29,761 nt of DNA. It comes from a virus. The stretch lies in IMG/VR virus record IMGVR_UViG_3300045988_081399. One strand, 5' to 3'. The notes under the pieces were generated by a model. The model saw only the letters and a program-made list of their open reading frames with translations. It did no database searches and was not told the origin of the DNA. Below are positions 9,257-27,946 of this stretch, in pieces. Position 1 is the first letter of the stretch; every line of letters begins with the position of its first letter. The position numbers and the translations under genes are program-made.

Positions 9257-9327
9257 ACTCCTGTAGCTCAGCAGCTAGAGTGTGCGGCCATATCGCAAGG
9301 TCGTGGGTGCAAATCCCACCAGGAGCA
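9257..9327 (+). tRNA. tRNA-like element with candidate CAU anticodon and several non-canonical positions (possibly a pseudogene or decoy)
   Basis: Acceptor ACTCCTG/CAGGAGC (A1 x C72 mismatch). D arm GCTC-AGCAGCTA-GAGT. Variable loop AGGTC. T arm GTGGG-TGCAAAT-CCCAC. The anticodon arm TGCGGCCATATCGCA is 15 nt rather than 17. Confidence 0.45.
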
Positions 9328-9491: not shown

Positions 9492-9971
9492 GTGCCGGCA
9501 CTGAGAAACGCAAAACGTGAAAAATTTGTGCAATGTCTGATTGTTGGAATGAGCCGGCGCAAGGCATATCTGGAGGCGTTCCCGGCGGCACGCAAGTGGA
9601 AAGACAACACGGTGGATTCCCGCGCCTATGAGCTTTTTCAGAACAGTGAGATTCTGGATAGGTTTACGGAATTGCAAAACCAAGCCGCCCAGGGCGCGGT
9701 CTTGACCCGCCAGCGCAAGCGAGAGATCCTCTGCACCATTGCGGAGGATGAGGAACTAGAGCCGAGAGACCGCATCAGGGCGATCGACACGGATAACAAG
9801 ATGGAGGGCGAGTACACGGAGAAGGTGGAGGTCAGCGAGACCAACAACAACCTGTTCGCCCAGATAGAGGAGTCAATCAATGGTTTACAAGCGATTCAGC
9901 CGGAAGCAGCTGCTGACGCTGCTGTGGTGGAAACAAGCGGAACTGAATCAGTACGACGGTCTCATCTGTGA
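9492..9971 (+). CDS. terS: Terminase small subunit
   Basis: GGAGGTGA RBS precedes GTG 9492. N-terminal NAKREKFVQCLIVGMSRRKAYLEAF is typical of Terminase_2-type small subunits. The ORF overlaps terL by 92 nt. Confidence 0.7.
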   Translation: MPALRNAKREKFVQCLIVGMSRRKAYLEAFPAARKWKDNTVDSRAYELFQNSEILDRFTELQNQAAQGAVLTRQRKREILCTIAEDEELEPRDRIRAIDTDNKMEGEYTEKVEVSETNNNLFAQIEESINGLQAIQPEAAADAAVVETSGTESVRRSHL

Positions 9972-11136
9972 CGGCTCTGTTCGGTCTGGTAAAACCGTTG
10001 CCATGTCTGTGGGCTTCCTGCTCTGGGCTATGTCCACCTTTGACGGTTGCAAGTTCGCCCTATGCGGTAAGACCATCGAGGCGCTGCGGCGGAACGTGGT
10101 ATCCCTCATCCCCGGCCTGATGGACGGGATCATGCGGGTGCAGGAGCGGCGCAGCGACAAGACCATGACGGTGTGGGGCTTCGGCCACGTCAACACCTTC
10201 TATCTGTTTGGTGGTCGAGACGAGAGCAGTTACACCCTGATCCAAGGCATGACGCTGGCGGGCGTGCTTTTCGATGAGGTAGCGTTGATGCCACGCTCCT
10301 TCGTGGAGCAGGCGTTGGCTCGTTGCAGCATCAGCGGGTCACGGTACTGGTTCAACTGCAATCCGGAAGGGGCTTCCCATTGGTTTTACCGAGAATGGAT
10401 TTTGAAAGCAGAGGCACACAACGTGCTGCACCTGCATTTCACCATGGCGGACAACCTGGCCTTAGACCCGGCGGTGCGGGCACGGTACGAGACGATGTAT
10501 ACCGGCGTGTTTTATGACCGTTACATCCGTGGACTGTGGGTGGCGGCGGAAGGCCGCATCTATGACTGCTTCGACCCGGCCAAGCACATGACCGGCACAC
10601 TGCCGGAGTTGGCTGGTGACTGCTATGTGAGCTGCGATTATGGCACGCAAAATGCCACAGTGTTCCTGCTATGGCAGCGGGAGCGGGGCACAGAGCGGTG
10701 GATATGCCGTCGAGAGTATTACTATTCCGGCAGGGAGAAAAAACGGCAGAAAACGGACAAAGAGTTTTGCGCTGACCTGGGCACCTGGCTGGGGGATGAA
10801 CGTCCTCGTGCTGTGGTGGTTGACCCTTCAGCGGCTTCGTTTATTGCGGAGCTGCGCCAAGCAGGCTACCCGATGCAGCAGGCGGACAATGAGGTGTTGG
10901 ACGGCATCCGCAACGTATCTACCCGGTTACAGGCCGGGACACTGCTGTTTTCCGCCTCCTGCGTCCATACGGCGGATGAATTTCAGGCGTATGTTTGGGA
11001 CGAGAAGGCAGCGGAGCACGGGGAAGATAAGCCAGTCAAAGTCAATGACCACTGCATGGATGCGGTGCGATATTTTGTGACCACCATACTGGGGCGGCAG
11101 GTCGTGAGAGTCGGCAAGCGCCCAGCAAGATTGTGA
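9880..11136 (+). CDS. terL: Terminase large subunit (PBSX/Terminase_3-like)
   Basis: Walker A DGSVRSGKT, Walker B-like VLFDEV, and a C-terminal nuclease block (VVDPSAASFIAELRQAGY ... NDHCMDAVRY). Confidence 0.9.
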   Translation: MVYKRFSRKQLLTLLWWKQAELNQYDGLICDGSVRSGKTVAMSVGFLLWAMSTFDGCKFALCGKTIEALRRNVVSLIPGLMDGIMRVQERRSDKTMTVWGFGHVNTFYLFGGRDESSYTLIQGMTLAGVLFDEVALMPRSFVEQALARCSISGSRYWFNCNPEGASHWFYREWILKAEAHNVLHLHFTMADNLALDPAVRARYETMYTGVFYDRYIRGLWVAAEGRIYDCFDPAKHMTGTLPELAGDCYVSCDYGTQNATVFLLWQRERGTERWICRREYYYSGREKKRQKTDKEFCADLGTWLGDERPRAVVVDPSAASFIAELRQAGYPMQQADNEVLDGIRNVSTRLQAGTLLFSASCVHTADEFQAYVWDEKAAEHGEDKPVKVNDHCMDAVRYFVTTILGRQVVRVGKRPARL

Positions 11137-11145
11137 GGTGAGCGT

Positions 11146-12597
11146 GTGATTATCTACTTAGACAGGGCGGAGGCGCCTGACCTGGAGCACATCCCAGGAC
11201 AGGTGCTCCAACACCTGATTTCGGCGTCCGAGCAGGCAAATGGACGCTATGACAAGCTCCATCGGTATTATCTGGGGCGACATGACAACACCAAAAAGCC
11301 GCCAGATGAGGGCGAGAGCGTTGTGACCATCAACTACGCCAAGTACATCACCGACATTATCCTGGGTTACTACTTGGGCGAGCCGGTCAAGTACGACACC
11401 AATCCCCAAAAGGACAAGAGTGTAGCGGCAGCCGGAACGGATGAGGCAGCGGGTGTGCTGTCCGCGGACAATGAGCCGGTGGATATTTCGGCGCTGCAAG
11501 ATGCCTACGATGTCCAGCAGATCGCGGCCATTGATGCGGACATTGGAAAATATATGGGCGTCATGGGCGACTGTATGGAGCTATGTTATGCGTCTGACGA
11601 TGAGGTGCCCATGCCCCGATCGGCGTACATTGACCCACGCAACGGCGTATTGGTCTGCGACACCAGCGTAGAGCACAAAAAGCTGTTCGGCGTGGTCTGG
11701 GACAAGCGCCAGACGGTGGCCGGTCAGACGTATTACGCAGTGTCCATCTATACGGACACTGGCGTGCAGGAGCTGCGGTGCGATGATTTGGCCACGGCGG
11801 CATTTACCCCAGTGGCAGACCGGCGGGAGCACTATTTCGGCGCTGTCCCGCTGATCGCATACACCAACAACCGGGAGCGGCAGGGCGACTTTGAGCAGAT
11901 CATCAGTCTGATTGACGCTTATGACGAGCTGATGAGCAACCGCCTGACCGACAAAAAGAAATTTGTGGATGCGCTGCTGGTGTTCTTCGGGATGACCCTC
12001 CGAGATGGGGATGATGAGAAACTGGCGCAGGAGAAGTTTTTGGATGGCGCTCCGCTGGACGCACGAGCCGAGTACATCCAAAAGACCTTTGACGAGTCCA
12101 GCGTGCAGGTGCTGGCAGACGCACTGGTGCGAGAAATGCACAAGATGACTATGACGGTGGACATGAGCGATGAACAGTTCGCCGGGAACAGCTCCGGCCA
12201 GGCGTTGAAGCTGAAACTCCTGACCATGAATCTGCTGGCCAAGAACAAGATGCGCCGAATGGAAAAAGGGCTGAAGGAGCGCTTCTCGCTTTATAATCAC
12301 TGGCTGGTCACCCGCGGTGATATGGCACCGGTCGGTGTCAACGATATTGATGTTGTGTTTACCCTGTCCATGCCCATCAACGAGAGTGAGATTGTCCAGA
12401 TGGTCACCAGTTTGCAGGGCATTGTGGATGACCGAACCCTGCTCAGCCAGTTGTGGTTTGTCCGCGATCCGGCGGAAGCGGCTGAAAACATTAGGCGGCA
12501 GAAGCAGGCAAACGCGGCCATCTATGGCGTCCCGTCCCAGGCGGATGAGACAGAAGCGGAGGAAGACACCAAGAAAGCATTGAAACAGGATGAGTGA
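11146..12597 (+). CDS. Portal protein, SPP1 gp6-like
   Basis: GTG start follows GAGGTGA. N-terminal RYDKLHRYYLGRHDN ... INYAKYITDIILGYYLGEPVKY pattern. 483 aa, directly after terL. Confidence 0.88.
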   Translation: MIIYLDRAEAPDLEHIPGQVLQHLISASEQANGRYDKLHRYYLGRHDNTKKPPDEGESVVTINYAKYITDIILGYYLGEPVKYDTNPQKDKSVAAAGTDEAAGVLSADNEPVDISALQDAYDVQQIAAIDADIGKYMGVMGDCMELCYASDDEVPMPRSAYIDPRNGVLVCDTSVEHKKLFGVVWDKRQTVAGQTYYAVSIYTDTGVQELRCDDLATAAFTPVADRREHYFGAVPLIAYTNNRERQGDFEQIISLIDAYDELMSNRLTDKKKFVDALLVFFGMTLRDGDDEKLAQEKFLDGAPLDARAEYIQKTFDESSVQVLADALVREMHKMTMTVDMSDEQFAGNSSGQALKLKLLTMNLLAKNKMRRMEKGLKERFSLYNHWLVTRGDMAPVGVNDIDVVFTLSMPINESEIVQMVTSLQGIVDDRTLLSQLWFVRDPAEAAENIRRQKQANAAIYGVPSQADETEAEEDTKKALKQDE

Positions 12598-14179
12598 TCG
12601 CAAGTATTGGCGCAAGCGCTCCGTGAAACTGGGGCTCTTGAGTGAGCGAAAAGCCCAGCGGACGGCGCGGGCGGTGTTAGACGCCTATGACAAGGTGCTG
12701 ACCACCGTGCAAGGGCGGATTGAAAGGATTTTTGCCCGATTTGTCCGGAACAACGACAGCCTGAACGCAGAGAAAGCCCGCCAACTCCTGTCGGTGCGGG
12801 AAACCCAGAAATATCGGCAGGAGCTGTTGGTGTTGTACCACAGCACCACGGATAAGGCGCTGCGGGATGAGCTGCGTGCCATGCTGGAGGCTCCGGCCTA
12901 TGCCAACCGGATCAGCCGCCTGGAAGCCCTGCGGGACATCGTGCGGGCGGATTGCAGGCAGTTGGGTCTGCTGGAACGGGAGTTGGTCGGCAAAGGGCTG
13001 GCTGACGCCCTACAGGAGGCATACACCCGGCAGGTGTTTGACATCCAGCAGGGCACAGGGTACGGCAGGCGTATCAAGACACTGGAGGACAAGCAAGTTC
13101 GCGCCATCCTGGGGCAAAAATGGCAGGGCGGCAACTTTTCCGGGCGCATTTGGAACAACAACCAGGCGTTTGCGGACGCGGTGCAGCAGGCCGTTTTGAC
13201 CGGCACCCTGGCGGGGATGAGCTTCCGCGAGATGTCGGATATGCTCTTACAAATCACCGGCACGGACGCGACTTCTGGCGCAAAAGCACGCTCCATGCGG
13301 CTCATCCGCACGGAGTTTTGTCATATGTCGGCACAGGGTGCGTTGCTGGGATACAAGTCATATGACCTGGAATACTACCGCTATCTTGCCACGCTGGACT
13401 CCCAGACGGATGAGGAGTGCGGTGCGCTGGATATGCGGCGCTTCCCGGTCAAGGACGCCACGCCAGGGTTGAATCTCCCGCCTATGCATCCAAATTGTAG
13501 GTGTACCACCATGCCGGACATGAGTGAGCAGGTGATCGCCAAGATCAAACGTGCCGCACGGGACCCAGTGACAGGAAAGAGCATCACCGTGCCGGGGGAT
13601 ACGACCTATGCGGAGTGGCACAAGAAGTTTGTCCAGGGCGTGCCGGACAGAAAACAGGTGGAGCAGCAGAAGCAGAGAACGGTTTCCTATGCGCACCTTG
13701 CGCAGAAAAGTGTTGCAACGGCAGGCGGGAATGGTATAATAACAGGAGCGAGAATTACAGACCCTCTAAGCAAGGAGGCAGATGAATTTGCGGAAATGTA
13801 TTATAGGGAAATACGAAACTTTTCTACCGATGCGGAGAAGATAGCTAAAAATTTAGGGAAAAGAAAATCGGACATCAAACGAATCAAAATGTATCTTTTT
13901 GAAGAAAAGTCACTCTATGATGAAGATATTAGAGAGTGGCGACGGTTTGATTCGGATTGTGCAATTGCTCAAAGCTGGCAACGTCTCATGGTCGGAAAGG
14001 ATATCAAGCCGCACGACAGGATATTGATCGAACATGAATTGCTGGAAATGCAAATCAAAAAAGAAAACCCAACGTTGGAGCATTGGAAGGCGCACGAATT
14101 AGCGTCAATGAAGTATAATTATCAAAAGGCTGCGGATGAATATTATGGTAATCTTAAGAAACATCAAAAAAACGGATAA
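12590..14179 (+). CDS. Minor head protein of the MuF / SPP1 gp7 family with an extra ~150-aa AT-rich C-terminal domain of unknown function
   Basis: MuF core includes the LNLPPMHPNCRCTT signature (about aa 290-305). From about nt 13730 (aa ~380) the composition switches to AT-rich, and the sequence (..EMYYREIRNFSTDAEK..FDSDCAIAQSWQRLMVGKDIKPHDRILIEHELLEMQ..KAHELASMKYNY) is not part of the MuF core. Confidence 0.85.
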   Translation: MSDRKYWRKRSVKLGLLSERKAQRTARAVLDAYDKVLTTVQGRIERIFARFVRNNDSLNAEKARQLLSVRETQKYRQELLVLYHSTTDKALRDELRAMLEAPAYANRISRLEALRDIVRADCRQLGLLERELVGKGLADALQEAYTRQVFDIQQGTGYGRRIKTLEDKQVRAILGQKWQGGNFSGRIWNNNQAFADAVQQAVLTGTLAGMSFREMSDMLLQITGTDATSGAKARSMRLIRTEFCHMSAQGALLGYKSYDLEYYRYLATLDSQTDEECGALDMRRFPVKDATPGLNLPPMHPNCRCTTMPDMSEQVIAKIKRAARDPVTGKSITVPGDTTYAEWHKKFVQGVPDRKQVEQQKQRTVSYAHLAQKSVATAGGNGIITGARITDPLSKEADEFAEMYYREIRNFSTDAEKIAKNLGKRKSDIKRIKMYLFEEKSLYDEDIREWRRFDSDCAIAQSWQRLMVGKDIKPHDRILIEHELLEMQIKKENPTLEHWKAHELASMKYNYQKAADEYYGNLKKHQKNG

Positions 14180-14369
14180 CAGCATTTCGGCGGATTATTA
14201 CCCTGAAGGCGAGAAGTTGAAAGGGTTTATGAAAATCCGCATTAAAGATGGAGAAATCTTAGAGCACGACAATGCAAGTTCGTTTTCCGCTGCGCACGTT
14301 CTGCGCGAGTTGAAGCGCCTTGCAAAATCAGATAATCCGCCGAAGGAAAAAACGTTGTTGTGGTATTGA
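14136..14369 (+). CDS. Small hypothetical protein (77 aa) in AT-rich island 2; candidate partner or immunity protein for the MuF C-terminal domain
   Basis: ATG 14136 (weak AAAGG RBS; alternative ATG 14145) overlaps the MuF gene end by 44 nt. AT-rich. Followed by three hairpins, including a strong terminator. Confidence 0.5.
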   Translation: MNIMVILRNIKKTDNSISADYYPEGEKLKGFMKIRIKDGEILEHDNASSFSAAHVLRELKRLAKSDNPPKEKTLLWY

Positions 14370-14480
14370 TACCGCCAATTTGGGCGACATCTAAAGCGGG
14401 TAAACTCAATGAGTCCAAAATTGGACTCACCAATATACTGGTAGCCCCGAAAATTCGGGGCTATTCTAAAATGCTGATTC

Positions 14481-14507
14481 AAGCACGTTGTAAGACGTGC
14501 TTTTTTC
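14481..14507 (+). terminator. Rho-independent terminator inside the structural operon
   Basis: AAGCACGT (14481-14488), loop TGTAAG, ACGTGCTT (14495-14502), with the T-run continuing to 14506. Confidence 0.75.
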
Positions 14508-14582
14508 ATACCCAAAACGCAACGGCATGGGGCTGGCGCGTCCAGAAATGTGCTGGGGCAACGATAAATGGAGGACATGACC

Positions 14583-15224
14583 ATGAGATACAAACATAGA
14601 CCGTTGGCATTTGCCTGCTACGCTCCGGAGGGCGCTGGAAACGGCACCACTCCGCCGGAAGGCGGCAACAGCGGCGACAACGCAAACGCCGGGGGCGGCA
14701 ACCCGAACCCGGACGGGGGCAGAGCGCCGGAAGAACCCCTGACCTTTGACCAGCTTCTTGCCAGCAATCGGGATTACCAGAGCGAGTTTGACCGCAAGGT
14801 GACCCAGGCACTGACCACAGCAAAGCAGAATTGGGACAAGGAGCAGGCGGAGAACATGGACGAGGCCAAGCGGCTGGAGAAGATGACCGCCGCCGAACGG
14901 GCGCAGTATCAGCTGAGCAAGGATAAGGCCACCTTGGAGCAGGAGCGTGCCGCCTTTGAGCGGGAACGCTTGCAGGTGTCCGTAGGCACCGAGTTGCAGA
15001 AACGCGGCTTGAGTGCTGATTTTGCGGTTTATCTGACCGGCAACGACGCCGAGACCAGCAAAGCCAACATCGATGCGTTTGCATCCCTCTGGAAAGCCTC
15101 CCTGAGCGATGCCGTGAACGGCAGAATGCGTTCTGGCGCACCGCCCAGAGACGCCAATCCGACACCGGATTACAGCAAGATGAGCGACGCAGAATACTAC
15201 GCCGCCACCTACGACAAAAAATAA
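14583..15224 (+). CDS. Capsid scaffolding protein (DUF4355-like)
   Basis: TGGAGGA 14569-14575 lies 7 nt before ATG 14583; in-frame ATGs at 14568 and 14577 are alternatives. G/N/P-rich N-terminus, then a helical charged core (FDQLLASNRDYQSEFDRKV...ERAQYQLSKDKATLEQERAAFERERL). Located between the MuF and capsid genes. Confidence 0.72.
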   Translation: MRYKHRPLAFACYAPEGAGNGTTPPEGGNSGDNANAGGGNPNPDGGRAPEEPLTFDQLLASNRDYQSEFDRKVTQALTTAKQNWDKEQAENMDEAKRLEKMTAAERAQYQLSKDKATLEQERAAFERERLQVSVGTELQKRGLSADFAVYLTGNDAETSKANIDAFASLWKASLSDAVNGRMRSGAPPRDANPTPDYSKMSDAEYYAATYDKK

Positions 15225-15238
15225 GGAGATGATATGCT

Positions 15239-16351
15239 ATGGCAAATAGCTTTATTACCATCCAGGAGATCGCCAGAGCAGCGCTGCCCCGACTGATCGA
15301 AAACCTGGTATTCCCCAACCTAGTTTATAAGGACTTTTCCAACGATTTCTCCCGCAACCTGGGCGACACCATCCAGGTGCGCAAGCCCGTCCTGCTGGAG
15401 GCAAAGGAGTTTGACCAGAGTGTGGGCACCACCGCCCAGGACATTGTGGAGACCTCCGTCCCCGTGACCCTGGACAAGATCGCCACCGTTGACGTGGAGA
15501 TCACCGCCATCCAGGGTGCCACCAACATCAACGACCTCCAGCGTCAGGTGCTGGAGCCTGCCGCCGTGGCGCTGGCACAGAAGATCAACTCTGACGGCCT
15601 GGCACTGTACAAGGACATCCCCTACATCTGCGGCACTGCCGGCACCGCCCCCAGCGCCCTGAAAGACCTGGCAGACGTCCGGCGTGTGCTCAACGCCAAC
15701 AAAGCACCTGTCTCTCCCCGCTATGCGGTCTGGGATACTGCGGCAGACGCCAGCCTGGTGACCATCCCCGCCATCGTCAACGCCGAAAAGAGCGGCAGCA
15801 CCCAGGCGCTGCGGGAAGGCTCCCTGGGCAGAGTGATGGGCCTGGATAACTACATGAGCCAGGGAATCCATCAGCACACCACCGGCATCACCAGCGCCTC
15901 CGCCGTCAAGGTCAACGGTGCGGTGACTGCGGGTGCTACCACCCTGGCCATCGACGGCACCGCGCTGGTCGGCAAGCTGGTCAAGGGCGATGTGCTGACC
16001 ATCGACGGCAAAAGCTACGTGGTCACCGAGGACAGCGCGGCCGCAGCGTCCAATGCCATCACTGGCGTCAAGGTCTATCCTGCCCTGCCCGACATCAAGG
16101 ACAATGCCGATGTGACCCTGGCAGGCAGCCACACCGCAAACCTGGGCTTCCACCCCTCCGCGTTCGCCTTTGTGACCCGTCCGCTGGTCAACCCCTCCGG
16201 CGTGGAGTCCTATGTGACCTCTTATAACGGTGTGAGCCTGCGTGTGGTTAAAGGTTACAACATGCAGTACAAGAAGGAGACGCTGTCCATGGACGTCCTG
16301 TACGGTTACAAGACCATGTATCCCGAGTTGGCTGTCCGTGCCATGGGCTAA
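15239..16351 (+). CDS. Major capsid protein (HK97 fold, P22-coat-like family)
   Basis: AAGGAGA RBS. 370 aa. The N-terminal FITIQEIARAALPRLIENLVFPNLVYKDFSNDFSRNLGDTIQVRKP pattern matches P22-coat-like capsid proteins, from memory. Located after the scaffold gene. Confidence 0.85.
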   Translation: MANSFITIQEIARAALPRLIENLVFPNLVYKDFSNDFSRNLGDTIQVRKPVLLEAKEFDQSVGTTAQDIVETSVPVTLDKIATVDVEITAIQGATNINDLQRQVLEPAAVALAQKINSDGLALYKDIPYICGTAGTAPSALKDLADVRRVLNANKAPVSPRYAVWDTAADASLVTIPAIVNAEKSGSTQALREGSLGRVMGLDNYMSQGIHQHTTGITSASAVKVNGAVTAGATTLAIDGTALVGKLVKGDVLTIDGKSYVVTEDSAAAASNAITGVKVYPALPDIKDNADVTLAGSHTANLGFHPSAFAFVTRPLVNPSGVESYVTSYNGVSLRVVKGYNMQYKKETLSMDVLYGYKTMYPELAVRAMG

Positions 16352-25233: not shown

Positions 25234-25671
25234 ATGAAAGAAATGATTTGTACGGGTGCGGGGCTGGTTGGTGCCGCCATCTCTGGTTTCATCGGCGGCC
25301 TGGATCTGGCGCTAAAGGCGCTTTGCATCTTCATGGCCATCGACTACATTTCCGGCTTAATCTGCGCCGGGGTGTTCCATCGCAGTCCTAAGACAGTCAA
25401 CGGGGCGCTGGAATCCAAAGCCTGCTGGAAGGGGCTGGTGCGCAAGTGTATGGCGTTGCTGATGGTGCTGGTGGCGCATCTGCTCGACCTGCTGTTGGGC
25501 ACTGCCTTCGTCAAGGACGGCGTCTGCACGGCGTTCATTGTCAGTGAGGTCATCTCCATCACGGAGAACGCTGGCCTCATGGGCGTGCCCATGCCTGCGG
25601 TGATGCAGAATGCGATCGAAATGCTCCAGAAGAAAGGAGATAACCATGGCGGCAACAGTGACGAAGATTGA
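25234..25671 (+). CDS. Holin (Phage_holin_4_1 / TcdE-like family)
   Basis: AAAGGAGA RBS precedes ATG 25234. LALKALCIFMAIDYISGLI ... SEVISITENAGLMGVPMP is the family signature. Several TM segments. Confidence 0.85.
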   Translation: MKEMICTGAGLVGAAISGFIGGLDLALKALCIFMAIDYISGLICAGVFHRSPKTVNGALESKACWKGLVRKCMALLMVLVAHLLDLLLGTAFVKDGVCTAFIVSEVISITENAGLMGVPMPAVMQNAIEMLQKKGDNHGGNSDED

Positions 25672-27040
25672 TTACCTGGCCAAGGCGGCAGAGGCAGCGG
25701 ACAAGCTCTATCCGAAGATTGTGTCCCTGCGCTGCACTCACGCCAGCGGTGCGAAGACCTACGCCCAGCTGCTGAGCGCCAAGAAGGTCACCTGCGCTTC
25801 CTCCGCCTCCATCGCCTATCAGCTGGCTGGAATCCTGGCCAGCGGCGATGTGGTCGGCCATCGGGACGCCGTGGGCGGCTCGGACGCCAACATCCTGCGC
25901 AAAAAGTCCACCGTGGCCAAGGCGATGACCGGCGTGGCCAATCTGCCTAAGGACAAGGTGGACGTGGTGTGGGTAGGGAAGAAGTACGCTGACCTGCCCG
26001 CGAAGTACCGGCAGAAGGGCGTCCTCTGCGTCCAGGACAGCAACGTCTGCATTTGCGCTGGCGGCGGTGCGATCTACAGCTGCAACGGCGCAAAGGGCAG
26101 TCAGCTGGACAGCAAGGGGCGTTACAAGGCCAACAAGATCACCAGTGGCTATGCGTTCAATTCGCCCATCCTGGTGGTGGTCGTGCCCAAAATAAAGGAG
26201 GTTCCCACAGTGACAAAACTGCATTTTATGGACGTCAGCCAGTTCAACCCGACCGTCGATTGGGCGAAGGCAACTAAGGATGTGGATGGCGTCGTCATCC
26301 GTGCCGGTTACCGCGGAACGGGCGGCGGCCTGAAGACTGACCCCATGTTCTTGAAGCACATCCAGGGCGCCATCAGCGCCGGGGTCAAGCGGATCGGCGT
26401 CTACTGGTGGACGGCGCACACCTCTGTCGCTCAGGCGGAAGGGGATGCGGCCTATCTGACGAGCTTGCTGAAGCCCTACAAGGCGCACATCAACTTCCGG
26501 GTCTGGCTGGACAGTGAACCGTCCGCCAACCCCAGCGCCTTCAACCGCCTGTCCGCTGCGGCACGGACGACCTGCGCCAAAGCGTTCCTGGCGGCTACGG
26601 CGGCGGCAGGGCATGCTGTGGGCATCTACTCCAGCGACAGCTATTTCATCAGTGGCCTGCAGTTGTCCAAGCTGTCTAGCTACCCGCTGTGGGTGGCCAA
26701 ATGGTCGGCAATCCCGCCCAAGCAGGTTAAGAACTACGTTGGCTGGCAGTACACCGACAAGGGCAAGGTGACCGGCGTGACCGGTAAGGTAGACCGGTCC
26801 TATTTCTATGAGGACTTCGCGAATAATAAGTCGATTGAGGAGGTACATGATATGGACACGCTGAGAAAAGGTGACAAGGGACAGCAGGTGCGTGCGCTGC
26901 AGAAGCTGCTGGGTGGTATCGCTGTGGATGGTGTCTTCGGCAATGCCACCAAAGCGGCGGTGGAGGCGTACCAGCGGCAGTATCAGCTGAGCGTGGATGG
27001 TGTCGTGGGGGCGAAGACTTGGGACGCGCTGCTAAAATGA
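25646..27040 (+). CDS. Three-domain endolysin: N-terminal putative Cys peptidase/amidase, central GH25 muramidase, C-terminal PG_binding_1
   Basis: AAAGGAGA RBS precedes ATG 25646, which overlaps the holin end by 26 nt. GH25 blocks: FMDVSQFNPTVDW, GVVIRAGY, VWLDSE, GIYSS, LWVAKWS, GWQYTDKGKVTGVTGKVDRSYF. C-terminal LRKGDKGQQVRALQKLL...DGVFGNATKAAVEAYQ...VDGVVGAKTWDALL is PG_binding_1. The N-terminal VTCASSASIAYQLAG resembles Amidase_5-type Cys hydrolases (low confidence). Confidence 0.9.
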   Translation: MAATVTKIDYLAKAAEAADKLYPKIVSLRCTHASGAKTYAQLLSAKKVTCASSASIAYQLAGILASGDVVGHRDAVGGSDANILRKKSTVAKAMTGVANLPKDKVDVVWVGKKYADLPAKYRQKGVLCVQDSNVCICAGGGAIYSCNGAKGSQLDSKGRYKANKITSGYAFNSPILVVVVPKIKEVPTVTKLHFMDVSQFNPTVDWAKATKDVDGVVIRAGYRGTGGGLKTDPMFLKHIQGAISAGVKRIGVYWWTAHTSVAQAEGDAAYLTSLLKPYKAHINFRVWLDSEPSANPSAFNRLSAAARTTCAKAFLAATAAAGHAVGIYSSDSYFISGLQLSKLSSYPLWVAKWSAIPPKQVKNYVGWQYTDKGKVTGVTGKVDRSYFYEDFANNKSIEEVHDMDTLRKGDKGQQVRALQKLLGGIAVDGVFGNATKAAVEAYQRQYQLSVDGVVGAKTWDALLK

Positions 27041-27058
27041 TGTGATAGACAGCAAAAA

Positions 27059-27099
27059 GCCTGGGGCGGTTCAAACTGCCCCAGGCCTTTTGTTTTTTT
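27059..27099 (+). terminator. Rho-independent terminator ending the late/lysis operon
   Basis: GCCTGGGGC (27059-27067), 10-nt loop, GCCCCAGGC (27078-27086), then CTTTTGTTTTTTT. Confidence 0.85.
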
Positions 27100-27179
27100 C
27101 AGAAGAGGAAGAATTGTAAAACATAAGCAAAGTCCGCATTTTGGAACTAAATGTCTATTATAACCGTTCGAGGTTTGAT

Positions 27180-27203
27180 TTGTCAATAGACCCTGGTTGA
27201 CAA
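27180..27203. promoter_or_regulatory. Inverted repeat TTGTCAA-N10-TTGACAA overlapping the -35 box (candidate operator)
   Basis: TTGTCAA at 27180-27186 and its exact reverse complement TTGACAA at 27197-27203. Confidence 0.5.
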
Positions 27204-27225
27204 CCGCGGCTCCGACATGTATAAT
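27197..27225 (+). promoter_or_regulatory. Consensus sigma-A/sigma-70 promoter (probable early promoter)
   Basis: TTGACA 27197-27202, exactly 17-nt spacer, TATAAT 27220-27225. Located between the late-operon terminator and the first early ORF. Confidence 0.7.
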
Positions 27226-27316
27226 CAAAAATAAGAGTAAACTTTGTTAAAGTTTTGATGATATTTTAGCAAAGTTTCGGGAGTAGGACATAAAGTTTAA
27301 TGAAAGGGGGGTATAT

Positions 27317-27946
27317 ATGGACATGTTGACACGCGAATATATCAACGAGTTGGCTGAACTGATTATCGAAATATACGACATCCGAGTTCCAATAAAGAAT
27401 ATCGATGAAATCGTAGAAAAATTAGGCGGATGCGTTGATAATGAAAAAGAAAGTCTATATGATGGGACGATTGAAAAAGTAGACCAAGATAGTTTTTGCA
27501 TTAAAGTATCCCCCTACCAAAGCGAGCGAAGGAAAAATTTTACGGTAGCGCATGAGCTGGGACATCTGTTTTTGCACATGGGTTACAAGACAAATCCACA
27601 GATTTGGGAAAGTCATGAGTCTGGGAAAAAATATCAGAGGTCTGGGACAACGGAACAGGAATATCAGGCAAATGAGTTTGCGGCATCTCTGTTGATGCCT
27701 AAAAAAAAATTCATAGCAGAGTTAATGAGGATTGCAGCTGACGTCCTGGCTGAAATCAAAGCGCTGGACCCGGACACGCGGATCACCCTGCATTACATCC
27801 GGAGCATCATCAACCAGGGCAAGGTGCCTGTCCGCAAGGCTGGCACCAAGAAGCTGGTCGATTTGGACAAGGTGCTGGAGTACCTGGCTCGCGGAGACGA
27901 AGATGAAAAGACACCAACCGGAGAAATCCGGAGAGTGGAGCTGTGA
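27317..27946 (+). CDS. Chimeric ORF: AT-rich ImmA/IrrE-type (M78) metallopeptidase N-terminal part fused in frame to a GC-rich excisionase/HTH_17-like C-terminal part
   Basis: FTVAHELGHLFLH (HExxH) and EQEYQANEFAASLLMP are ImmA/IrrE signatures. After an A9 run (27701-27709) the composition switches to GC-rich at about 27722. The rest (ITLHYIRSIINQGKVPVRKAGTKKLVDLDKVLEYL) resembles Xis/HTH_17 proteins. An in-frame ATG at 27725 could start a separate 73-aa product. Confidence 0.7.
   Translation: MDMLTREYINELAELIIEIYDIRVPIKNIDEIVEKLGGCVDNEKESLYDGTIEKVDQDSFCIKVSPYQSERRKNFTVAHELGHLFLHMGYKTNPQIWESHESGKKYQRSGTTEQEYQANEFAASLLMPKKKFIAELMRIAADVLAEIKALDPDTRITLHYIRSIINQGKVPVRKAGTKKLVDLDKVLEYLARGDEDEKTPTGEIRRVEL

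Follow-up and report, generated by a model that had tools for sequence, protein, structure and literature searches.

What does the foreign-looking end of a phage head gene encode, and how does it come to be there? The question is raised by IMG/VR virus record IMGVR_UViG_3300045988_081399, a stretch of 29,761 nucleotides (hereafter the window), in which the open reading frame (ORF) at 12590–14179 (+) encodes a 529-residue protein of the MuF family. MuF proteins such as SPP1 gp7 and Mu gpF sit in the capsid near the portal. An earlier interpretation made without database searches (the sequence-only reading), whose three quoted motifs are found in the translation, had proposed that this protein's C-terminal domain is a foreign, exchangeable addition. 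Here, we find that the MuF locus is polymorphic and that the 3' third of muf is exchanged horizontally, together with an overlapping 74-residue ORF, as a single cassette. This mobile, low-GC (guanine plus cytosine) cassette probably encodes an uncharacterized capsid-delivered effector or toxin together with a neutralizing partner, and probably carries its own conserved promoter.

The constant part of the protein is an SPP1 gp7-type minor head protein core, which we place at residues 1–352 (12590–13647, +) from Pfam, TIGR01641 and identity to sister phages. PF04233 matches residues 194–308 (E = 3.6e-14), the NCBIfam model TIGR01641 matches the core (E = 1.8e-19), PHROG 115/2841 'minor head protein' matches the gene product, and homology to the MuF proteins of known phages ends at residues ~349–366. 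The surrounding gene order of TerL (9880–11136), SPP1-type portal (11146–12597), muf, DUF4355 scaffold (14568–15224) and capsid (15239–16351) is that of a standard siphovirus head module.

From about residue 353 the gene is foreign in composition, with a GC content of 0.42 against 0.60 in the backbone. In 200-nucleotide windows, GC falls from 0.58–0.62 upstream to 0.38–0.44 between ~13700 and ~14200, with the steepest drop near 13781, and GC at third codon positions is 0.75 in the MuF core versus 0.415 in the C-terminal part. The sequence-only reading had described this as an abrupt switch from GC-rich to AT-rich DNA; the break is real, but its junctions lie at 13647/13664, ~70 nucleotides upstream of the visible change. 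The low-GC stretch which that reading reported is likewise real but does not stop at 14179, running instead through the small ORF and recovering only at ~14550. The 706-nucleotide cassette itself (13664–14369, +), composed of a linker with a promoter, an effector-like domain and the partner ORF, has a GC content of 0.419 (z = −3.5 against all same-size windows of the 29.8 kb); the window has just one other low-GC island.

The limits of the cassette are set by a metagenome contig (L004) that is 97.2% identical to 13664–14369 over all 706 nucleotides, without gaps, while its backbone belongs to PF06152 (Phage_min_cap2). Identity starts in the linker codons QQKQRTVSYAHLAQKS and runs precisely to the partner ORF's stop codon; both cassette copies have a GC content of 0.42 and both backbones ~0.60. 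On a third backbone, in protein P0221, the domain is 100% identical to that of the window and the MuF core 77% identical. Foreign composition and these two copies on other backbones bear out the view that the C-terminal domain is an exchangeable foreign segment.

Alternative C-termini at the same junction, which the sequence-only reading had named as a test, are indeed present. At least five others occur on MuF cores 94–98% identical to that of the window, diverging after 'AEWHKKFVQGVP' at residue ~352 and giving proteins of 501–573 residues; the one in P0211 is Ntox50 (residues 406–496, E = 8.5e-26). More distant cores, about 40–56% identical, bear ADP-ribosyltransferase (ADPRT), PBECR2, CdiA_C or DUF6883 C-termini. 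We fetched four sister-phage loci (L091, L092, L094 and L096), whose flanks are 92–97% identical to the window DNA by blastn. Homology ends at 13647 (13740 for L092) and restarts at 14467–14486, delimiting a hypervariable island (13648–14466, +) that spans muf's C-terminal part, the partner ORF and ~100 nucleotides of residual DNA. Each of the four sister C-termini has its own small ORF of 72, 61, 81 or 67 residues, mutually unrelated and also unrelated to that of the window, and all of these alternative cassettes are low in GC as well (0.44–0.485). The contrary case, a structural domain conserved in related phages with backbone-like composition, is not what these loci contain.

The residual non-coding stretch between cassette and backbone (14370–14466) matches neither L004 nor the backbone flanks. 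It contains two short palindromes, GAGTCCAAAATTGGACTC (14408–14425) and TAGCCCCGAAAATTCGGGGCTA (14443–14464), whose arms are too short for the repeat search at the settings used. Both find a match, on both strands, in the 5' part of pRha, a conserved gene for phage regulatory protein Rha; this gene, of ~650 nucleotides, lies between cassette and scaffold in the sisters and is missing from the window. The palindromes could be deletion scars or operator-like sites.

The locus is built in the way that defines MuF polymorphic toxin loci (PMC5576092): an N-terminus of the MuF superfamily encoded right after the portal gene within the head and packaging module, a C-terminal extension that is polymorphic among close N-termini and swapped between near-identical backbones, and a small ORF (<150 residues) immediately downstream. 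The Ntox50, ADPRT, PBECR and CdiA_C domains at the same position in close relatives and the setting in Firmicutes gut phages are further points of likeness. MuF toxins with downstream immunity genes are described as an established class (Jamet et al. 2017, PMC5576092), and Apk2 (p)ppApp-synthetase MuF toxins with their IapK/Aph1 immunity proteins are reported as experimentally validated (PMC12226406). Unlike these, the domain in the window matches no catalogued toxin domain and was not found on non-MuF toxin carriers.

The small ORF that overlaps the end of muf by 35 nucleotides is a candidate immunity protein or inhibitor (14145–14369, +; 74 residues), on the grounds of its homologs, its AlphaFold2 model and its linkage to the domain. 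The sequence-only reading had identified it as a downstream ORF of 77 residues. It does travel with the domain, the two being linked in essentially all of the 84 domain loci that we examined, but its start probably lies further in: the longest frame opens at 14136 and gives 77 residues, while the homologs have 72–74 and begin MV(I/L)LKNI, which makes the ATG at 14145 the most likely start. Directly downstream of the domain stands this partner family in 76/84 loci, a second family of ~80 residues with the same secondary-structure pattern in six, and divergent small ORFs in two; none of these loci had the domain while lacking a small partner ORF. Counted among the 76 is an in-frame fusion of domain and partner into a single 240-residue ORF (L043, 4923–5645; '...EYYAEIDKHKKDDETISADYVPENS...VVWF'), which hints at physical interaction, in the Rosetta-stone manner, unless it reflects an assembly indel in a metagenome-assembled genome. 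Pairwise identities of domain and partner correlate (Mantel r = 0.57, p = 0.001), and the partner diverges faster, with a mean identity of 30% versus 49% for the domain. The partner model (predicted local distance difference test, pLDDT, 87) has a beta4-alpha-beta topology; Foldseek returned no significant fold neighbor in the PDB, and sequence and profile searches of Pfam, PHROGs, NCBIfam, PADLOC and the PDB gave no match.

Within the 35-nucleotide overlap, the muf frame contains a slippery heptamer, A AAA AAC (14167–14173). We rejected a −1 frameshift that would fuse domain and partner, as the partner lies in the +1 frame and a −1 slip yields only a 17-residue tail. One database entry, P0059, runs on into the frame of the partner, for which a homopolymer indel is the more likely cause.

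The linkage is asymmetric. An orphan partner (P0336, 73% identical, listed in 234 collection blocks) resides in a bacterial chromosome (L098–L103), flanked by an IS30-type transposase and a tRNA cluster, with promoter-like and terminator-like sites of its own and neither a trace of the domain nor phage head genes nearby. A second orphan (P0356) is found in a phage (L104–L107) that lacks the domain and whose MuF has a different, JAB-like C-terminus with its own 45-residue ORF. Since the domain always has a partner while the partner occurs without the domain, the pattern is the one to be expected of a harmful protein with its antidote, and it is hard to square with an assembly chaperone.

In the phage with the second orphan (L104–L107, 1051–4174), the MuF C-terminus carries a JAB/MPN-like 'HNHPxxxxxxSxxD' motif, read by eye, and muf is followed in order by the 45-residue ORF, a zinc-ribbon ORF, the orphan 74-residue partner, a Tad2-like (anti-Thoeris) gene and Phage_VG64. 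This gene content marks the gap between muf and scaffold as a hotspot for conflict genes.

The pair also occurs away from intact head proteins. Stand-alone domain ORFs (<300 residues) are present in 27 loci, where they follow a split MuF, a min_cap2 remnant or TerL, or lie beside bacterial surface-protein genes; one pair sits between a TOTE system and a Fic gene, and another copy, adjoining an integrase and a type IV secretion system (T4SS) coupling protein, contains an internal stop. These stand-alone pairs resemble orphaned or decaying cassettes and the cargo of conflict islands. At one locus (L033, 3346–5646), a stand-alone DUF6883 protein, itself another type of MuF C-terminus, is encoded 0.9 kb upstream of a stand-alone domain and partner, an arrangement resembling the orphan toxin-immunity arrays downstream of Rhs and contact-dependent inhibition (CDI) loci.

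The domain itself comprises residues 381–529 (13730–14179 including the stop codon, +) and belongs to an uncharacterized family. AlphaFold2 models it with pLDDT 89 and a predicted template-modeling score (pTM) of 0.83 as mostly helical with one short beta-hairpin. Taken in isolation it matched nothing in Pfam, PHROGs, NCBIfam, PADLOC or the PDB by sequence and profile searches, and its model had no Foldseek match in the PDB or BFVD. The best Foldseek E-values were 5.6 for the domain in the PDB, 0.37 for the domain in BFVD and 0.2 for the partner in the PDB. The sequence-only reading could not assign the domain either, and the structure search it proposed leaves it without a PDB or BFVD neighbor. 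One known identity was considered and rejected, as matches to Peptidase_Mx in three relatives fall in a separate inserted domain; Ct_MAD of Jamet et al. (PMC5576092), by its description, is a domain of Proteobacteria phages.

The family is large. A profile search collected 1,783 clusters at 50% identity (E ≤ 1e-3), a lower bound on family size, of which 1,109 match at E ≤ 1e-10. The domain is C-terminal in nearly all matches examined, with a tail of 0–3 residues in most. GTDB genomes with the domain are mostly Clostridia, and the closest relatives there (66–76% identity) are mostly Lachnospiraceae such as Blautia and Dorea; presumably these are low-GC genomes, which would fit the GC content of the cassette. 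Among 90 full-length members, the N-terminus is PF04233 in 39, PF06152 in 26 and PF25310 (VG15), which we take to be MuF-like as well, in seven. The first two correspond to MuF1 and MuF2 as named by Jamet et al. (PMC5576092). One member of the family, P0063 (548 residues), has a long N-terminus that is not MuF-like, with CxxC zinc-ribbon motifs and no recognizable head-protein domain, and may represent an unrecognized carrier type.

The domain is also present in 19 deposited phage records at 30–39% identity to that of the window, including Clostridioides difficile phage CDMH1 gp4, Streptococcus suis phages phi20c, phi5218 and Clyde, several Streptococcus 'Javan' prophages and a Staphylococcus phage. 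The MuF of CDMH1 is classed as 'Cter-Unk' by Jamet et al. (PMC5576092).

Comparison of the 84 loci revealed a constellation of invariant residues between 13976 and 14095 (+) that forms a candidate metal-binding or catalytic site. W463 (13976–13978), R465 (13982–13984), D476 (14015–14017) and the H482, E483 and E486 of an H-E-x-x-E motif (14033–14047) are identical in 84/84 loci, H502 (14093–14095) is so in 83/84, and the same residues are invariant in two further family alignments (A4 and A5). AlphaFold2 predicts a helix that bears both H482 and E486, four residues apart, with H502 on the helix after it. A metal-dependent hydrolase is the most likely identity of the domain, judging from the invariant H-E-x-x-E on one modeled helix and histidine on the next, together with the invariant aspartate, tryptophan and arginine.

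The nearest mechanistic parallel would be the gluzincins (HExxH...E), in which a histidine and a further ligand likewise lie four residues apart on one helix with a glutamate beside the first histidine, and a third ligand follows 15–16 residues on, in the next helix. We infer that the domain presents this His/His/Glu ligand set in permuted order, with E486 as the acidic ligand, and we regard the resemblance as a mechanistic lead rather than as membership. The motif here is HExxE...H (H482-E483-L-L-E486, all but the two leucines named above as invariant) and not HExxH...E, and the active-site helix of the model comes after a helix, not after a beta-strand. The domain lacks both the HExxH motif and the fold of zincins, the only strands of its model being those of a two-strand hairpin, which two helices follow; it has no sequence or Foldseek similarity to zincins, and no Foldseek hit with E < 0.3 in the PDB or BFVD. 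Two other chemistries were discarded. A cysteine protease, prompted by the cysteine that the sequence-only reading noted in 'DSDCA', fails as this residue is not conserved in the family alignment, and for an HD-phosphohydrolase the His-Asp of 'KHDLG' is missing from the window's own subfamily, the sole HD-domain Foldseek match being 4s1b (E = 9.3).

The linker that joins core and domain contains a predicted promoter of the sigma-A/sigma-70 type (13713–13740, +), with a −35 box TTGCAA (13713–13718), a 16-nucleotide spacer and an extended −10 box TGgTATAAT (13732–13740), all embedded in the codons of VATAGGNGII. The sequence-only reading had pointed to this site, which has an upstream TG and whose boxes match the consensus at 10/12 positions; taken alone it is not above chance in this sequence, as a single-sequence scan found three such sites against 2.0 ± 1.6 expected. 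We replaced this non-significant statistic with a comparative test across the family, scoring against TTGACA-16/18-TGnTATAAT, and here the site holds up. At the equivalent position upstream of the domain, 54/77 loci score at least 10/13, 40/77 at least 11, and five are perfect, compared with 6/231 and 0/231 control windows from the same genes at the two thresholds. The loci are related by descent and these counts are therefore not independent, though the pattern spans cassettes 36–76% identical in protein.

Codon-level comparison of the 18 closest cassettes separates the DNA from the protein it encodes. Residues vary at both boxes, with V/I/L then A/E/V at the −35 and S/P/N/F/G/D then D/A/G-I-I/M at the −10, whereas 17 of the 18 retain the codon pattern ..TT G.A A.. 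and ..T G.T ATA AT. throughout. Because the promoter bases, those at third codon positions included, are kept while the encoded residues vary, selection acts on the DNA. In the sister locus L092, whose domain is another, the shared linker extends precisely to where the −10 box ends, and the promoter-bearing linker is therefore also a recombination junction.

The first conserved translatable ORF after the promoter is the partner. We rejected an internal start as the source of a free domain, since Met403 is conserved in the close subfamily only. Just downstream of the promoter in the window (13772–13784), a perfect Shine-Dalgarno AAGGAGG precedes by three nucleotides an out-of-frame ATG that would open a 20-residue ORF (MNLRKCIIGKYETFLPMRRR); the motif arises from SKEA codons, and conservation in the family is not apparent. 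The first terminator-like site downstream of the cassette, found by a scan, is a hairpin with a 9-base-pair stem followed by TTTTTCATACC (14481–14510, hairpin 14481–14502, +), in the conserved backbone flank that resumes at 14467–14486 and upstream of the scaffold gene.

Together these observations suggest the following model. The constant MuF core would place the protein in the capsid beside the portal, and the variable domain would be its cargo, an effector or toxin entering the next cell with the DNA. The overlapping ORF would encode the cognate neutralizing (immunity) protein, with translational coupling making the two together. Promoter and terminator-like site would form a transcription unit that expresses the partner while the late operon is silent, that is, in the lysogen, where it would protect against the same effector arriving with related phages. 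We put the probability of this overall explanation, a swapped MuF cassette with capsid-delivered cargo, a neutralizing partner and a lysogen-active promoter, at about 0.62. What the comparisons show is the exchange of the cassette, the alternative alleles at its junction, the strict linkage of domain and partner, the orphan partners and the conservation of the promoter; packaging, injection, harmful activity, neutralization by binding, promoter activity and chemistry are the parts that we infer. Our confidence is highest that the partner neutralizes, lower that the domain is a capsid-delivered effector or toxin, lower again that the promoter gives lysogen immunity, and lowest that the domain is a metal-dependent hydrolase.

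Several observations weigh against this model. Domain and partner searches matched no known toxin, enzyme or immunity family or fold, and it is consequently the context that argues for a harmful activity. HExxE...H corresponds to no recognized catalytic motif, and the modeled helix order is unlike the zincin fold. The N-terminus is of MuF type in 72/90 full-length relatives and unrecognizable in the rest, with LXG, Rhs, CdiA or PAAR-type N-termini absent among the 90; MuF toxin domains, by contrast, are described as shared with other polymorphic-toxin families in about 75% of cases (Jamet et al. 2017, PMC5576092), a feature that the window's domain lacks among these relatives. In some relatives the domain follows another predicted effector, Peptidase_Mx-like or PBECR3, so that it could be an accessory terminal module. 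For a weapon it is unusually conserved and abundant, and some stand-alone copies have decayed (L058 has an internal stop). Finally, no start codon downstream of the promoter is conserved among the family loci, Met403 being confined to the close subfamily, and the predicted transcript would have a leader of ~400 nucleotides before the partner ORF.

Some of these points would suit an injected, non-lethal early effector for anti-defense or host takeover, as in polyvalent proteins, with the partner acting as inhibitor or chaperone in the producing cell. Restriction to MuF-type carriers, high conservation and abundance, and the polyvalent-type architectures in which the domain comes after Peptidase_Mx-like or PBECR3 all fit; the variable island of related phages holds anti-defense genes such as the Tad2-like gene that comes after the second orphan partner (L104–L107), and such a role was proposed for MuF fusions by Iyer et al. 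(PMC5512222). We nevertheless consider it unlikely. Close relatives bear growth-inhibiting toxin domains (Ntox50, CdiA_C) at the very same junction, the domain has no sequence or fold similarity to known anti-defense proteins by BFVD Foldseek and PADLOC, and orphan partners in a chromosome and in rival phages suggest harm to the recipient, although a host countermeasure against an early effector would fit them too.

The conserved promoter of the module raises another option, in which domain and partner are an autonomous toxin-antitoxin or addiction moron, fused to muf by insertion and acting in the lysogen in abortive infection or prophage maintenance rather than being delivered by the virion. 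The 27 loci with a stand-alone domain ORF and partner, some outside head modules, are consistent with this, as are the overlap of the genes and the fact that the toxin-like gene never occurs without the small one. A free domain, on the other hand, would have no conserved translation start after the promoter; in 72 of the 90 full-length proteins the domain extends a MuF-type head protein in frame, and it is swapped exactly at the site of bona fide MuF toxin domains; PADLOC gives no match, and at least one stand-alone copy is a pseudogene. This makes an addiction module quite improbable. A structural or assembly part of the head, binding portal or DNA through helix-turn-helix (HTH)-like N-terminal helices with the small ORF as assembly chaperone, is largely refuted and has very little chance of being correct, for despite weak, sub-threshold HTH matches at one stretch in several members (HTH_ParB, HTH_36, terminase small subunit), the span of PHROG 115 'minor head protein' over residues 1–509 and the DNA and portal binding of SPP1 gp7 (as cited in PMC12226406), sisters with 92–97% identical head genes have unrelated C-termini instead of the domain, its composition is foreign, the identical cassette sits on three different backbones, and orphan partners in a chromosome with no head genes nearby would be senseless for a chaperone.

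A capsid-delivered effector with a neutralizing partner can also be set against two known kinds of system. In the account of Iyer et al. 2017 (PMC5512222), polyvalent proteins and MuF-effector fusions likewise use MuF as a virion anchor for effectors presumed to be injected with DNA, and some relatives form multi-effector chains of min_cap2, Peptidase_Mx-like and the domain, or of PBECR3 and the domain. More than one effector domain per polypeptide is found only in three relatives (P0066, P0070 and P0168), however, and the protein in the window is MuF with one extra domain; none of the Pfam LPD, PBECR or MPTase models that stem from that study matches it, and an obligate small partner is more typical of toxin-immunity pairs. 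In CDI and Rhs cassettes, as here, a compositionally foreign toxin tip moves jointly with its immunity gene, the exchange taking place at a conserved junction, and orphan immunity genes and orphan pairs of C-terminal toxin and immunity gene occur elsewhere in genomes. Delivery in the present case would be by phage capsid and not by a secretion system, and the shared junction is the promoter-bearing linker QQKQRTVSYAHLAQKSVATAGGNGII in place of VENN, PT-TG or any other known pre-toxin motif. This type of system is thus already known (PMC5576092, PMC12226406, PMC5512222); in the available text of that literature we found neither the domain family, the partner and its orphans, nor any mention of a promoter conserved at the nucleotide level inside a coding linker.

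Elsewhere in the window are genes for RecT, a replication initiator, a methyltransferase, a tRNA, tail proteins, an endolysin and an ImmA/IrrE-type protease (Peptidase_M78, 27317–27946); an integrase is not among the window genes, and near-identical backbones are found on contigs of up to 110 kb. The phage-encoded tRNA (9257–9327, +; Rfam RF00005, 45 bits) lies upstream of the packaging genes. The second low-GC island (~26700–27750, minimum GC 0.387) comes after the start of the endolysin gene (25610–27040), whose end it includes, and overlaps the start of the Peptidase_M78 gene; a further module may have been acquired here, at the lysis/lysogeny boundary.

According to predictions, MuF toxins are common in the human gut; in the accounts available, Apk2 is the only type studied experimentally and most C-terminal extensions are listed as 'unknown'. 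One very large unlabeled class of these C-termini, of at least 1,783 clusters, is now defined together with its cognate partner, and seven residues (W463, R465, D476, H482, E483, E486 and H502) are named for mutation. Near-isogenic phages that differ only in the cassette provide a natural experiment, and the model makes two predictions: that orphan partners protect cells, and that the intragenic promoter expresses immunity in lysogens. A new enzyme fold and a tool to follow cassette exchange between gut phages could also come of this work. In a bolder reading, which we offer tentatively and with the odds somewhat against it, the domain would be the first of a new class of metal-dependent enzymes that the capsid delivers, whose H-E-x-x-E...H site is permuted and whose fold the PDB lacks; it would rank among the commonest cargoes that MuF-type head proteins carry in gut Clostridia phages, with bacteria and rival prophages retaining orphan copies of the 74-residue inhibitor for dedicated defense and a promoter inside the coding sequence immunizing lysogens. 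If true, this would add an 'injected effector versus immunity' layer to phage-phage and phage-host conflict.

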